From: a virus
Taxonomy: Duplodnaviria > Heunggongvirae > Uroviricota > Caudoviricetes
DNA length: 42,613 bases
Reading direction: 5' to 3' (one strand)
Virus record (IMG/VR): IMGVR_UViG_2703718839_000008
Below the pieces are notes generated by a model. That model was not told where the DNA came from. It made no database searches and saw only the letters and a program-made list of their open reading frames with translations. Each line of letters begins with the position of its first letter. Positions within the stretch are counted from its first letter, which is position 1. Of the stretch, positions 779 through 42,237 are shown one piece after another. The position numbers and the translations under genes are program-made.

Positions 779-1070
779 TCTATCAATGCTATTAGCAGGG
801 AGATATATCACCAGAGTTTAATGTGTGATTTTTTATTTATCGTCGAACCTGGATTGTTTATCATTGGCCTTAACAAAGTTAACGGCTAATAAGATTATTT
901 CCATCACTTCGTGAGAGCTTCATGCCTTGAGAGGATCTCAATTTTCTTTTGCAATGAGACAGGCGCTTCCTGTTGTTATGGTATAGTACCCCGCTATTGA
1001 GCCTCCTGAATAGTGATGCTGAATAACATAACCCCATGATATATCGATAAAATAATCTCTACATTTGAAA

Positions 1071-1193
1071 ATGCACGGTAATTCTGAAATGCAAAAAATC
1101 AACCAAACCAGCGCAATGCCTGAAAAAACTGACGTTCACTGGAGTGGTCGGTTTAGCGTTGCACCAATGCTCGATAGGATGTACCGTTTTTGA
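1071..1193 (+). pseudogene. dusA: Displaced original 5' end of dusA (first about 35 codons) left at the prophage junction
   Basis: Translates MHGNSEMQKINQTSAMPEKTDVHWSGRFSVAPMLD then diverges (RMYRF, stop); near-identical to the N-terminus of the intact dusA at 41200. Confidence 0.85.
1161..1176. other. attL core region (crossover within dusA codons ...APMLD)
   Basis: Host-like sequence ends at gcaccaatgctcgat; the same atgctcga core is found at 41296-41304. Confidence 0.6.
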
Positions 1194-1318
1194 AAAACAA
1201 GTAGTTATACACTTTGTGGGAGCCTATTGGGAACCCGGTGTTTTCATTTCAAGGTGTAATCCATGCCGGGCATCAGAATGAGATATAATGAGATTTTTAG
1301 TGTTCCGCTTGAGAGTCT

Positions 1319-1855
1319 ATGATGCTTACCCTAGACGAGATAGGTCAATCTGTACGTAACAATATCCAGTTGATTATTGATCATGTCGGCTTACCTCTTG
1401 CTGTTGGTCCGCTCAGTGATGATGATTACAAGATTCTGTGTGGTGGCTATGGTGAGCTTGAATGGGACTATGCGTTAAGCACCTATGGCAACTCCAGAGA
1501 AAAGTATGAGTTCTGCATAAAACTTGTTCAGCAAGGTCGGGTTCAGGGAATACCATCAGGAGCAGCAATTTGTGTTTATGGGGTTGAAGAAAACATCTTT
1601 CGTATCCATATGATCGAAAGGTTTTCTAGAGAAGATGAATCTCACCCATTGAAAGGGCGCATGGTTTTACTCACTCTTATGAGTGCTTTTATATTTTGTA
1701 AAGCTGTTGAATGTAAAGTTGTCCACATTGTAGAGCCAGTACCAGAACTGGTGCAGTATTACGAGTCTTTTGGTTTCCGCATGGAACAGTGCGGTTATGT
1801 GATGTCTGCAGTCATTGATGAGCTGCAGGATATCTTTCTTAAATTTGCTCAGTAG
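1319..1855 (+). CDS. Cargo protein, 178 aa, possible GNAT-like acyltransferase fold
   Basis: ORF just inside attL; C-terminal ...VVHIVEPVPELVQYYESFGF resembles the GNAT C-terminal motif; no confident family match from memory. Confidence 0.4.
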   Translation: MMLTLDEIGQSVRNNIQLIIDHVGLPLAVGPLSDDDYKILCGGYGELEWDYALSTYGNSREKYEFCIKLVQQGRVQGIPSGAAICVYGVEENIFRIHMIERFSREDESHPLKGRMVLLTLMSAFIFCKAVECKVVHIVEPVPELVQYYESFGFRMEQCGYVMSAVIDELQDIFLKFAQ

Positions 1856-2051
1856 GTATAGACGAGAAGGGTCTACAAATTGTAGGATACCCGTCCAGAT
1901 TACCTTAAAGGTACATCTATGGCAGTCGTTTTGTGCTTAAACTACTAAGAAACGATGTCACCAATCGACATGATCGATTGGCATAAGTTAGCGAAACAAG
2001 CTAGCTTTAAAGAGAGGGTTAGAGACGCCTTTACTGTCTCGGGAGTTTTCT

Positions 2052-2225
2052 ATGAAAGATCAAAAAGCAACCAAGCCACAGGTTAAGTTCGACACAATGA
2101 AAGCATTCGCAGGTATGGGTGCTGCTGTTGAAGTTCTGATGAAGGCTGCTCCTAATGCGTTCACTCACGCTACTGTCTCTGGTAAAGAGCAGCAGGGTAA
2201 GCTTCGTCGTCGCAAAGCAGCATGA
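2052..2225 (+). CDS. Small basic protein, 57 aa, hypothetical
   Basis: ATG with GGGAG RBS; MKDQKATKPQVKFDTMKAFAGMGAAVEVLMKAAPNAFTHATVSGKEQQGKLRRRKAA; followed directly by a strong terminator. Below the ORF-track size cutoff. Confidence 0.35.
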   Translation: MKDQKATKPQVKFDTMKAFAGMGAAVEVLMKAAPNAFTHATVSGKEQQGKLRRRKAA

Positions 2226-2244
2226 TCATAGCTGGTGCTTTTTG

Positions 2245-2272
2245 AAAACCCGCCTTTAGGCGGGTTTTTTCT
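2245..2272. terminator. Bidirectional rho-independent terminator
   Basis: aaaacccgcc-ttta-ggcgggtttttt; A-tract and T-tract flank a GC stem; sits between convergent transcription units. Confidence 0.7.
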
Positions 2273-2554
2273 TTAGTGATGTTCTTTGCCCTTCTGTTTG
2301 CTTGTTCTGACCTGTTCCCACTCGATACGCCCTTCTTCCCGTCTTTTGTCAATATATTCCGCAAGATCCTGAATGTTGATGCAGCGTTTTGCTTTTTGTG
2401 ATGTACCGATGCGATATGTAGGTACAGGCAACTTACAAGCGTTTGCTTTTGCTTCTGCTGTGGCTGGACTCATACCAAAGTATTTTTGACTAACTGCTGA
2501 GAGTTCAATGTTAGGGGTATTGAATTCAGCCATCAGTAAAAACAAGGTGTTCAT
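2273..2554 (-). CDS. PrtN/AlpA-like small DNA-binding protein, candidate excisionase or regulator
   Basis: MNTLFLLMAEF...MSPATAEAKANACKLPVPTYRIG...LAEYIDKRR recalls PrtN-family/excisionase-like phage proteins; start chosen at the ATG with a GGAG RBS. Confidence 0.5.
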   Translation of the reverse strand: MNTLFLLMAEFNTPNIELSAVSQKYFGMSPATAEAKANACKLPVPTYRIGTSQKAKRCINIQDLAEYIDKRREEGRIEWEQVRTSKQKGKEHH

Positions 2555-2590
2555 AATTTTCTCCATCAAAACCGGCTGCACCCGGGAAAA

Positions 2591-3163
2591 TCATAATTCT
2601 GTGCTGGTGGCAGGAATTAATTTCTGCCAGATAGCGGAAACATATTTTGCCTGATGACGGGCATCGGCCAGGGCGTTGTGCCGTTCGCCATCGAAAGGCA
2701 TGTCCATTTTGGGGTCGAATCCGATGGAACGCCCAAGCGTAACGATCGTGCGTACATCGTGGTCATTCCAGTATGCCCACGGGCAGATTTGTCCTGCTCG
2801 CTCGTAAGCTCCACGTAAAATTACGTTGTCGAAGGTGGCCCCGTTACCCCAGACTTTTAAATATTTTGTATTGTCTGCATGCTGATTAATGAAATGGCTC
2901 AGTTCAGAGAGTGCATCGCTGATCGACAAAGTATCATCAATACAGATTGCAGCTCGTGCTTCAGAGCTCTGTTTCAACCACCACAGGATGGTATCGCCGT
3001 CAGGTGTAGCTCCTTGCTTCATAGCACTGTCCAGGCTAACAACCGTATAGAATTCTTGTCCGATGTCTCCGGTTTCTGGAGTGAAGAACACCGCGCCAAT
3101 GGAAACGATCGGTGCATCCTTATTTTTCCCCATCGTCTCAAGGTCGATCATTAAGTTGTTCAT
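2591..3163 (-). CDS. DEDD-type 3'-5' exonuclease (DnaQ-like fold)
   Basis: MIDLETMG...WGNGATFD...H..ALADA pattern of DnaQ-like exonuclease motifs; stop/start overlap with upstream gene. Confidence 0.6.
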   Translation of the reverse strand: MNNLMIDLETMGKNKDAPIVSIGAVFFTPETGDIGQEFYTVVSLDSAMKQGATPDGDTILWWLKQSSEARAAICIDDTLSISDALSELSHFINQHADNTKYLKVWGNGATFDNVILRGAYERAGQICPWAYWNDHDVRTIVTLGRSIGFDPKMDMPFDGERHNALADARHQAKYVSAIWQKLIPATSTEL

Positions 3164-3972
3164 CACTTCACCTCTTGTGATGGTTTTGCTGCAAAATACT
3201 CGATACCTTTATCCCAGATAGATTTTATGGTCGACCACGTGACTGGCACTTTAATTTCAATACGTCCGCTCCCGTCACAGGTATCGCAATCATCATCGCC
3301 AAAGCATTCCAGGCAGCTTATAAACGTAGTTTCTGAAAATTCACCGGATAGCGCCCCCTTAGCGCCGTTCTCGGCTGTTAGTCTCTTCGGCACCATAACC
3401 CAACCATCCGGAGTTACCGGAGAGTTGCCAGACAGTGCGTTCTGCAATCGTTCCAGCTTAACGTATTCCTGAACCCTGTTTCCGTCGCACGCCTGAAGCC
3501 ATTGCACAGCCTTTTGCGCATCAGTGTGAAAGGCACAAGTGCGACCGTCATCAAATTGCATTTCGTAGAGGTCAGCAACCTGTTTAAACTGCGTTTGTGG
3601 CAACTTGTAAGCCTGGCTTGCAGGTACGGCACCATAGAGCATGGCAGCGCGGCAGGCGTTCCAGCCTTCATCAAAACCGACTATGCCATTATTTAAAGAC
3701 GGACGAGCATCTGGCACCACCGGCACTGGCTTGGCTATATATAGCGGCTGAACATACCAGCCCTTTGATAACCAACTGTCAGCAATGTTTTTACTCCTGG
3801 TTATTGCCGGAATACCTAAGCCATTGTCTGAATGCAGCCATGCCACCGGATCCTCTTCCAGCGATGCCAGAGCAATTTCATAAGCACGGCGCTCAACATT
3901 GTCTCGCACGTCCATGCTGCTGATTCGTTCTTTGATTTCTTTAATCAGTTCTTTATCGGTAAATGTGGTCAT
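3163..3972 (-). CDS. Hypothetical early protein, 269 aa, with C-terminal Cys cluster (zinc-ribbon-like)
   Basis: ORF translationally coupled on both sides; C-terminal CLECFGDDDCDTCDGSG. Confidence 0.5.
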   Translation of the reverse strand: MTTFTDKELIKEIKERISSMDVRDNVERRAYEIALASLEEDPVAWLHSDNGLGIPAITRSKNIADSWLSKGWYVQPLYIAKPVPVVPDARPSLNNGIVGFDEGWNACRAAMLYGAVPASQAYKLPQTQFKQVADLYEMQFDDGRTCAFHTDAQKAVQWLQACDGNRVQEYVKLERLQNALSGNSPVTPDGWVMVPKRLTAENGAKGALSGEFSETTFISCLECFGDDDCDTCDGSGRIEIKVPVTWSTIKSIWDKGIEYFAAKPSQEVK

Positions 3973-6289: not shown

Positions 6290-6560
6290 ACAAAACAGAG
6301 AAGAACACCTGCGGTGGCAGCCGCCCGGATGGATTGGGTTATGAGCCCGTCGTCCGGTGATGCTCTTCTCTGTTTTGTAAAAAGAGCGGTACCAGCCGGA
6401 AGCAAGTGTACAAACTGGTACCGCGAGGACTACACACAGCATAAAGTTGTGGTGCCGGGTGCCTCCCGGTGCCTGGCGAAGGTTGCACACCAGGCGGGTG
6501 GGTATCCACAGAAGGTCGACTGTCAGCCTCAACCTTAACCCGCGTGCGCTGAGCCGCATT
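6290..6560 (-). promoter_or_regulatory. GC-rich structured leader in the leftward early transcript; candidate cis-acting RNA (antitermination or processing element)
   Basis: Long-range inverted repeat caaaacagagaaga (6297-6310) / tcttctctgttttg (6373-6386); perfect hairpin ggtaccag...ctggtacc (about 6399-6433); boxA-like CGCTCTTTTTACAA on the minus strand; no credible ORF. Confidence 0.35.
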
Positions 6561-40013: not shown

Positions 40014-41111
40014 TCAAGAGGCCTTATTTCTGCTCCTTTGGAGCTCTTCAAAACGATTATGTAAAGATTTCGGATACAGTTCGGTATATACCTGCCATAG
40101 CACGTTTAATGAACGATGCCCTGTAACCTGGGCGACTTCCTCAATACTAAAACCAGCCTCAAATAAGCGACTTGCCCCTTCTCTACGCAAATCATGGTAT
40201 CGCAGATCTTTAATACCTAATTTGCTTCTTACCCTCTGGAATCCCGCAGTAACAGAAGTGCTGTTATATGGAAAAATGAATTCTGATTTTTTGGGTTGTC
40301 GTTGGACGATATCCCAGGCTTCCCCAAGCAAGGCTACTTTCATATGGTTGCCTTCCTTTTTACGTGGATCTTTCCTGTCTCTTACGAGTATGGATTTTTG
40401 TTCCTGATCGAGATCCTCCCATCGTAATCGGCATACTTCACCGATTCGCATACATGACCACACAGAAAATTTGAGGATATCAACGAACGGAATTTTTGAG
40501 CATTTATGTGTAGATCGTTGTTGAAGACCTTCAATGAGCATGTCCAGTTCATCAGATGCCGGTCTACGATTACGACGATTTGATTTACCAATTAAACCAA
40601 GTTTAAGTAGATATGGACGAGCGGCTTTTGCTGGGTTTGATGTGTAATTAATTCCATATACAGGTTTGGCAGCATCCAGAACACTGCCAAGATAACTAAC
40701 ATCGTGGCTAACTGTAGCTGGACCTGCACCAGCGTTGTTTCTTAGCCTGCAATGTTCAATTACGTCATTTTCTGTCAGTTCAGATAGTTTGAGCGCGGAG
40801 ACGTCACTATCCATAAGCAGTTCCAGCACATATCTTTTAGTACGGCCTGCTTTACCTCCGGCATTTGGGTCATTTAAATATTTGTGTAGTAAGTCACGGA
40901 CTGTAAGTCCGTCAACTGCATTTGATGATGGAATGCCATATAGATCTAATTCCATCACTTTCTGTGTGCCCCATGTTTTGGCATGAGCATGTTTAGGGAA
41001 TGTTTTACTTTCCCTGTAAGTGATAACACCTTTTTCTTTGATAATCACATTACAGCGATAGCGTGGTGTGCCATCGGATTTTAGTCGTTTCTCTATGTTA
41101 TAGTATGCCAT
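40014..41111 (-). CDS. int: Tyrosine integrase (dusA-targeting type)
   Basis: 365 aa with C-terminal tyrosine recombinase catalytic region (R..H..R..Y); adjacent to attR within dusA. Confidence 0.85.
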   Translation of the reverse strand: MAYYNIEKRLKSDGTPRYRCNVIIKEKGVITYRESKTFPKHAHAKTWGTQKVMELDLYGIPSSNAVDGLTVRDLLHKYLNDPNAGGKAGRTKRYVLELLMDSDVSALKLSELTENDVIEHCRLRNNAGAGPATVSHDVSYLGSVLDAAKPVYGINYTSNPAKAARPYLLKLGLIGKSNRRNRRPASDELDMLIEGLQQRSTHKCSKIPFVDILKFSVWSCMRIGEVCRLRWEDLDQEQKSILVRDRKDPRKKEGNHMKVALLGEAWDIVQRQPKKSEFIFPYNSTSVTAGFQRVRSKLGIKDLRYHDLRREGASRLFEAGFSIEEVAQVTGHRSLNVLWQVYTELYPKSLHNRFEELQRSRNKAS

Positions 41112-41199
41112 TACACGACCTCGTTATTTCGGGTTCCCATAAAACGTGGGAACCTGTGCGGGAACCTAACGCGAGAAAAATAGCCTGAAATGTTCAAAA

Positions 41200-42237
41200 A
41201 TGCACGATAATCATGAAACACAAAAAATTAATCAAACCAGCGTGATGCCTGAAAAAACTGGTGTTTACTGGAATTCTCGGTTTAGCATTGCTCCTATGCT
41301 CGACTGGACGGACAGACATTGCCGCTATTTCTTGCGTCTGCTTTCCCGCAATACGTTGCTGTATACCGAAATGGTGACCACAGGGGCGATTATTCACGGT
41401 AAAGGTGATTATCTGGCGTACAGTGAAGAAGAACATCCGGTAGCGTTGCAACTGGGCGGTAGCGATCCGGCGGCGCTGGCGCAGTGTGCAAAGCTGGCAG
41501 AAGCGCGCGGATATGATGAGATCAACCTGAATGTCGGCTGCCCGTCTGACCGGGTGCAGAACGGCATGTTTGGTGCGTGTCTGATGGGTAATGCGCAGCT
41601 GGTTGCCGACTGCGTGAAAGCGATGCGCGATGTGGTGTCGATTCCGGTGACGGTGAAAACGCGTATTGGCATCGACGACCAGGACAGCTATGAATTTCTC
41701 TGCGATTTCATCAATACCGTTTCCGGCAAAGGCGAGTGTGAGATGTTCATCATCCACGCACGTAAAGCCTGGCTTTCGGGGTTAAGCCCGAAAGAAAACC
41801 GTGAAATCCCGCCGCTCGATTATCCGCGTGTGTATCAACTGAAGCGTGACTTTCCGCATCTGACAATGTCGATTAACGGTGGTATCAAGTCGCTGGAAGA
41901 GGCCAAAGCACACCTGCAACATATGGATGGCGTGATGGTCGGGCGCGAGGCGTATCAGAATCCGGGTATTCTGGCGGCGGTAGACCGGGAGATCTTTGGT
42001 TCCTCGGATACCGATGCCGATCCGGTGGCGGTAGTGCGCGCCATGTATCCGTACATTGAGCGTGAACTCAGCCAGGGGACGTATCTCGGCCATATTACCC
42101 GGCATATGTTGGGCTTGTTCCAGGGTATTCCTGGCGCGCGGCAGTGGCGGCGTTATTTAAGTGAAAATGCCCATAAAGCGGGTGCAGACATTAATGTGCT
42201 GGAACACGCGCTCAAACTGGTGGCGGATAAGCGTTAA
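41200..42237 (+). CDS. dusA: tRNA-dihydrouridine synthase A, intact, with phage-supplied 5' end
   Basis: 345 aa; [63 protein letters not shown]... Dus-family TIM barrel. Confidence 0.9.
41296..41304. other. attR core within the reconstituted dusA 5' end
   Basis: atgctcgac shared with the left junction; upstream differs at several codons from the displaced host 5' end. Confidence 0.55.

Follow-up and report, generated by a model that had tools for sequence, protein, structure and literature searches.

The window, by which we mean the whole 42,613-nucleotide stretch of DNA that was analysed (IMG/VR virus record IMGVR_UViG_2703718839_000008), carries near its left end two genes on the + strand, here named ORF178 and ORF57, which are separated by a spacer and followed by a terminator. 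They belong to an approximately 40-kb lambdoid, mEp460-like prophage that occupies the 5' end of dusA on an Escherichia coli chromosome. The features of the locus and of the far end of the prophage are as follows:

1065..1193, + strand: dusA', the host promoter-proximal 5' fragment, a truncated 42-codon ORF (RefSeq: partial tRNA-dihydrouridine synthase)
1144..1281, + strand: 45-aa ORF that starts inside dusA'
1284..1289, + strand: -10-like hexamer TATAAT, ~30 nt 5' of the ORF178 start
1319..1855, + strand: ORF178, 178 aa as a mechanically called ORF (PHROG 4350)
1856..2051, + strand: spacer of 196 nt, the 5' leader of ORF57
from 1859, + strand: TAGACG box, with the dyad TAGAC (1859-1863) / GTCTA (1871-1875)
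1883-1888, + strand: second -10-like hexamer, TAGGAT, after the TAGACG box
1897-1918, 1961-1981, 1986-2006 and 2022-2040, + strand: spacer hairpins A, B, C and D
2041-2045, + strand: GGGAG, Shine-Dalgarno sequence of ORF57
2052..2225, + strand: ORF57, 57 aa with the C-terminus ...GKLRRRKAA (PHROG 2741)
2244-2269 (element 2244..2275), + strand: intrinsic terminator, an 11-bp stem GAAAACCCGCC/GGCGGGTTTTT with 6 G-C pairs, then a T-run
2273..2581, - strand: excisionase gene xis (PrtN family), convergent on the ORF178/ORF57 pair
2591..3166, - strand: exonuclease gene exo, likewise convergent on the pair
40017-41111, - strand: integrase gene, at the right end of the window
41197-41304: phage-borne surrogate dusA 5' end at attR, 83% identical to the host copy (1068-1174)

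The original prediction of a left-end cargo, comprising a 178-aa protein, a small basic protein and a strong terminator, placed these three elements correctly. Their location immediately inside attL is also borne out: in the majority of 5,426 complete E. coli genomes, the match is limited to 1100-1174, annotated as dusA; the attL junction lies at ~1174/1175; and the integrase and the surrogate dusA are at the other end. The whole of 1100-2400 is matched in 356 of these genomes (~6.5%), O157 and O145 strains among them. The pair is on the strand opposite to the early operon, as had been claimed, with xis and exo converging on it. Because a surrogate dusA 5' end and an integrase are present at attR, the dusA reading frame appears to be restored by the prophage's own 5' end, which presumably provides its own promoter too; the arrangement fits the dusA-integrase elements described previously (PMC4482086). 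Phage mEp460 is 96.7% identical to the locus, and from its vegetative gene order, dinI(-), int(-), attP, gp23(+), gp24(+), xis(-), exo(-), it follows that gp23 and gp24 come to lie just inside attL after integration. The host dusA' fragment points into ORF178, and a terminator scan of the + strand detected no terminator-like site between the two; the sole such site on this strand from 775 to 2244 is a weak one at 1672, within ORF178.

ORF178 and ORF57 are real genes rather than chance ORFs, because they match PHROG families (PHROG 4350, E 2e-103; PHROG 2741, E 8e-36), have 51 and 48 database homologues, respectively, and both show a low dN/dS of ~0.05-0.1. Neither family has a function in PHROG. 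Alignments of homologues and RefSeq indicate that the likely start of ORF178 is one codon later, at 1322, giving a protein of 177 aa. The GNAT likeness originally claimed for this protein stands for its fold but not for its profile: ORF178 has no match among Pfam, NCBIfam, PADLOC or PDB sequence profiles, whereas an AlphaFold2 model based on 32 homologues (pLDDT 90.9, pTM 0.88) presents the GNAT order of elements in a mixed alpha/beta fold (b1-a1-a2-b2-b3-b4-a3-b5-a4-b6). Foldseek matched this model to 367 PDB chains at E<=0.001, with GNAT-type acyltransferases making up 50 of the 50 matches listed, and the BFVD viral fold library returned generic GNATs only. When 1.84 billion representatives were searched exhaustively by profile, 94 relatives emerged at E<=0.001, and these likewise escape Pfam, one of 53 distant members reaching Acetyltransf_1 (E 0.0058).

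Among these 53 distant members, W49 is invariant, Y148 (within YYESFGF) is kept in 52, E100 (on strand beta-4) is E or Q in 52, and P110-L111-x-G113, P140 and G152-F153 are strongly conserved. Y148 and E100 would correspond in position to the catalytic Tyr and Glu of RimI-type enzymes, and because these catalytic-type residues are conserved, ORF178 is predicted to be an active enzyme. At the place of the acetyl-CoA pyrophosphate-binding loop Q/R-x-x-G-x-G/A, between b4 and a3, ORF178 has a conserved H-P-L-K-G-R-M (109-115), in which Met replaces the last G/A and which is preceded by a 7-residue insertion. The protein is acidic (pI 4.81, net charge -10), as is its family (median pI 4.47, net charge about -14). 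By its modelled structure, ORF178 is an acidic GNAT-fold protein of an undescribed family, a predicted acyl-CoA N-acyltransferase. A distant 246-aa relative, P0140 (L176 5001-5741), is chromosomal and non-prophage, located between nagE and glnS in a core-genome context, with no separate small ORF called downstream of it. Its C-terminal ...AQAIKQMPNAP... recalls ORF57, but a natural fusion of a GNAT with the small protein was rejected upon comparison by hhalign (probability 0.2%, E 0.32, not significant).

ORF57 has no Pfam, NCBIfam, PADLOC or PDB-profile match. AlphaFold2 predicts a mostly disordered protein (pLDDT 60.7) with helices at residues 15-19 and 22-32, including a central helix FDTMKAFAGMGAAVEVLMKAAPNAF, and with a basic tail that ends in Ala-Ala. 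Its pI is 10.5 (family median 10.28), and its amino-acid identity across Enterobacteriaceae is 88-100%. The Ala-Ala C-terminus is conserved among homologues, and together with the conserved basic tail it is reminiscent of ClpX recognition signals. The internal lysines are not kept across genera: K31 is replaced by Q in Edwardsiella, and K50 by R in Brenneria and Shewanella.

The small ORF is the basic next gene that the original prediction described, but it is more than a follower, being a conserved partner in every locus examined. An ORF57 homologue comes after every ORF178 homologue in ~100 loci, down to ~40% identity; in IMG/VR, all 80 loci that have an ORF178 homologue have one of ORF57 as well, 190-200 nt further downstream. 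The pair is also present in loci of Shewanella, Photorhabdus, Brenneria, Edwardsiella, Serratia and coliphage Eeyore, and no partner-less ORF178 homologue was found in the phage-borne family down to the same ~40% identity. In Shewanella, where ORF178 is 39-43% identical by alignment, there is a 57-aa ORF with the same ...LLKAAP... core and a basic ...AA tail. Phage Eeyore (PP925821.1) possesses an unannotated 53-aa ORF57 homologue (L184 4798-4959, + strand; MEMKKERLFDTIQ...QGRRRVREAA), in place of which its record annotates several 30-38-aa ORFs in other frames. An ORF57-anchored scan of genome contigs contributed 6 loci, and the diversity sampled comes mostly from IMG/VR and individual contig look-ups. 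The pair occupies at least six distinct genomic positions, including the following:

next to attP, in mEp460
directly 3' of Q antiterminators of three Pfam families, before the lysis genes
immediately before a holin gene
40 nt after a cI-like repressor gene, on the same strand
between gpA and the portal gene, in a P2-like prophage
amid the genes of a myovirus tail and baseplate cluster
beside a host EamA transporter gene

The gap between Q and ORF178 contains a terminator-like hairpin upstream of the cassette, which we read as tR'. The gpA-portal interval of P2-like phages is the old/tin hotspot, which holds anti-phage systems (PMC9122126, PMC13586616). A Serratia liquefaciens prophage that has the pair after Q also encodes, past the lysis cassette, a 93-aa protein (L182 7488-7769) matching the Pfam Acb2/Tad1-hairpin family, an anti-defence family. 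Plasmids carry the cassette in 12 of 72,556 records, three of the four identical matches being circles of phage size. Taken as a unit, ORF178 and ORF57 are a 'moron' of temperate phages, a two-gene accessory cassette that is self-contained and moves horizontally: among close phages this cargo is present or replaced, it is found at varied positions, and between phage genes it has a terminator and a conserved -10 of putative promoter activity.

The comparison across related dusA prophages that had been proposed for this locus was informative. ORF178 and the spacer are replaced in sister dusA phages by two overlapping ORFs, one for a 190-aa SocA/Panacea-domain protein and the other of 128-139 aa; the latter is toxin-like and has no Pfam match. 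Because of this replacement, ORF178 is not a core phage function. The Panacea pair is carried by Lys8385Vzw, SKA5, a prophage of E. coli YF-1 and 16 IMG/VR contigs, at these coordinates in the three named records:

L004 2486-3687: Panacea pair of Lys8385Vzw
L005 2483-3684: Panacea pair of SKA5
L006 2483-3684: Panacea pair of the YF-1 prophage

The Panacea-carrying phages have near-identical int, xis, exo and ORF57, with ORF57 beginning ~40 nt after the Panacea pair; overall, 19 of 86 loci have a cargo other than ORF178 upstream of ORF57. The swap indicates that toxin-antitoxin-type cargo uses the same site and that ORF57 can persist without the GNAT. The interval from attL to ORF57 is an exchangeable cargo slot.

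Divergence across the cassette is unequal. Between the window and other Enterobacteriaceae loci, nucleotide identity is 67-82% for ORF178 and 54-82% for the spacer, versus 85-98% for ORF57 and 77-88% for its 3' UTR and terminator; dS is saturated for ORF178 where it is 0.05-0.7 for ORF57, with dN/dS alike. The less diverged block corresponds to 2041-2275 of the window, and the more diverged block to 1322-2040. This pattern suggests that the 3' half has undergone recombination or homogenisation, or else is constrained at the nucleotide level, for example by a 3'-UTR RNA. In distant genera, ORF178 and ORF57 diverge in step (58-65% versus 51-68% amino-acid identity).

These comparisons bear on the reading that the two genes are functionally independent, ORF57 and the terminator being a backbone or junction gene and ORF178 a stand-alone small-molecule acetyltransferase of detoxification or metabolism. 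The association of ORF57 with other upstream cargo, the far lower divergence of its segment and a possible separate promoter in the spacer would all be accommodated, but independence does not account for the lack of any ORF178 homologue without an ORF57 homologue in at least six unrelated contexts, nor for the parallel divergence of both proteins in distant genera, and we consider it unlikely. Neither does the persistence of ORF57 in Panacea-bearing phages favour a non-toxic enzyme-substrate or adaptor pair, in which the GNAT would acetylate ORF57 (at its N-terminus or lysines) or use it as an adaptor for a host protein, so changing some process of the host or the phage, by lysogenic conversion or as a regulatory switch; ORF57 has no internal lysine that is shared among the genera compared, and we regard such a pair as conceivable rather than likely. 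The same persistence weighs on a reversed polarity, in which the small basic ORF57 would be the toxin, or would inhibit a conserved target in the host, and the acidic GNAT would neutralize it by binding or acetylation: ORF57 would be lethal after loss of the GNAT unless another gene neutralized it, and dN/dS is similar for both genes. The strong conservation of ORF57 within Enterobacteriaceae is what contact with a conserved host component would predict, and the charges are complementary; even so, this polarity seems to us quite improbable.

The spacer between the two genes is structured (MFE -60.3 kcal/mol, z -3.28). In the four hairpins, 91.4% of cells pair (16 distinct sequences), versus at most 44% when the partners are slid; double-sided changes number 22 versus 8.9 in shuffles, with 0 of 500 shuffles reaching the observed value, and helix C has a compensatory change in four of its seven pairs. 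The G-U pairs place the structure in the RNA of the + strand. Rfam contains no family match for the spacer, only sub-threshold matches of terminator type. Distant loci have spacers of anywhere from 77 to about 250 nt, so the spacer is general only in part. The TAGAC(G) box (1859-1864) is complementary to GUCUC (2036-2040), just 5' of the ORF57 Shine-Dalgarno sequence, and RNAalifold prefers this long-range pairing to the local GAGAC/GUCUC hairpin; the TAGAC/GUCUC pairing is a possible alternative structure, which may act as a translational switch. A 43-aa ORF within the spacer region (1955..2086) has no family match and lies where loci differ by length-variable indels, and it was treated as non-coding. 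The ArcA-regulated sRNA-17 of E. coli K1 RS218, which is reported in an mEp460-like prophage (PMC7719688), was considered as the spacer RNA and rejected, its sequence mapping ~4 kb away; positions 6386-6406 (+ strand), in the early-left region, are identical to part of the published sRNA-17 alignment (PMC7719688).

Candidate promoters flank ORF178. A TAnAAT hexamer is found at equal distance from the ORF178 ATG in all contexts aligned (the window, Q-downstream, EamA-downstream and Shewanella loci). The hexamer at 1284..1289 is not accompanied by a good -35 and was therefore missed by a consensus promoter scan; because the -35 is weak, we treat it as a putative promoter. Past the ORF178 stop codon, the TAGACG box is invariant, and TAGGAT, TACGAT or TAGAAT occurs at ~30 nt in the Escherichia, Enterobacter, Serratia, Brenneria and Edwardsiella loci, so that the box and hexamer at 1859..1888 may provide ORF57 with an internal promoter or an operator. 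The terminator after ORF57 is kept, with a varying loop, in all aligned loci. The convergent xis gene, the stop codon of which is at 2273-2275 (- strand), has this terminator in common with the cassette. The description of this terminator as bidirectional is well founded for the + strand, the only strand on which the scan calls it and where the T-run follows, and less so for the - strand, on which the hairpin is followed by UUUUC: with only four U, termination of the xis transcript is plausible but weaker.

ORF178 and ORF57 probably form a host-protecting or toxin-like accessory module. In the model that we tentatively favour, while giving it somewhat less than an even chance, a lysogen would transcribe the cassette through the cassette's own -10, and in the present prophage the host dusA promoter that remains at attL would probably contribute as well. 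The two products would interact directly, as their opposite charges suggest; the GNAT would be the enzymatic effector, which ORF57 would bind and regulate as a labile, antitoxin-like inhibitor; and the pair would work as a toxin-antidote-like or phage-exclusion module to the benefit of the lysogen. Obligate pairing, conserved catalytic-type residues, hotspot positions, the Panacea swap, the conserved -10, the terminator, charge complementarity and a disordered partner with a conserved Ala-Ala C-terminus all point in this direction. Its serious competitors are the three alternatives weighed above. Against the model, the partner is encoded downstream and has no DNA-binding domain, which sets it apart from known GNAT antitoxins; two further features are unusual for an antitoxin, namely that ORF57 persists where the GNAT has been exchanged and that it has diverged less than the GNAT; and the near absence from plasmids, the poor -35 and the poor fit of an acidic GNAT to tRNA binding are further points to its disadvantage. 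Neither protein has a match in PADLOC-DB v2 at E<=1, and no description of the pair was found in Pfam, NCBIfam, PADLOC v2, Rfam or the searchable literature.

A more specific form of the toxin-antidote model, speculative and on balance doubtful, is that the cassette represents an unrecognised two-component kind of prophage immunity or toxin-antidote system. An acidic GNAT would be checked or aimed by a highly conserved, labile basic mini-protein; a promoter of its own and a structured leader RNA capable of alternative pairings would control how much of this mini-protein is made; and ORF57 with the terminator, the 3' half, would serve as a constant docking module for interchangeable effectors (the GNAT or the Panacea pair). 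The anatomical description of the cassette is much firmer than any functional model.

Cassette carriers comprise ~6.5% of complete E. coli genomes and many Enterobacterales prophages. PHROG 4350 and PHROG 2741, both of unknown function, gain a joint testable hypothesis from their strict pairing, and a survey of the attL-to-ORF57 slot in dusA phages could uncover further systems. If the pair is a toxin-antidote or exclusion module, it would be a GNAT-based system with a new architecture, having a downstream partner that lacks a DNA-binding domain, an acidic enzyme and a structured RNA spacer; should it instead prove to be an enzyme-substrate switch, an acetyltransferase and the protein dedicated to it as target would both be phage-encoded, which is rare.

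The comparison with GNAT toxins of the TacT/AtaT type, which the original prediction had raised, was unfavourable. TacT, AtaT, KacT and ItaT have no sequence-profile relationship to ORF178. Their RHH partner is encoded upstream, whereas here the partner is downstream, basic and without an RHH domain, and the enzyme is acidic; canonical GNAT toxin-antitoxin cistrons overlap, whereas here a structured spacer of ~196 nt separates the genes. The only same-strand ORFs of at least 30 aa between attL and ORF178 are dusA' and the 45-aa ORF that starts inside it, in agreement with the original remark that the usual upstream antitoxin is not evident. The strongly acidic character of ORF178 and its family argues against binding of aminoacyl-tRNA. 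A canonical type II GNAT/RHH toxin-antitoxin (TacAT/AtaRT/KacAT) that acetylates aminoacyl-tRNA is contradicted by the lack of an upstream antitoxin ORF, by the lack of an RHH/DUF1778 or GNAT match of ORF178 or ORF57 in Pfam, by the unrelated downstream partner and by a similarity to the toxins that is no higher than to many other GNATs; we consider it highly improbable, and membership of the canonical TacT/AtaT family is excluded on organisation, partner domain content and charge.

Protein N-terminal acetyltransferases such as NatD/Naa40, RimI and Ard1 have no detectable sequence homology to ORF178 and are not known to have a dedicated co-encoded small partner, whereas the ORF178 family is phage-borne and accessory. 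PanAT (Panacea antitoxin and toxin) occupies exactly the same slot, from attL to ORF57, in sister dusA phages; its proteins are unrelated to ORF178 and ORF57, and, being absent from the window, it is relevant only as evidence of an exchangeable slot. In organisation, the cassette resembles classical prophage morons and exclusion genes. Their proteins (those of rexAB, old/tin and stx) are unrelated to ORF178 and ORF57, but lambda rexAB after cI, P2 old/tin and stx after Q are likewise promoter-to-terminator cassettes at the same positions, and like them the ORF178-ORF57 cassette is variably present among sister phages.
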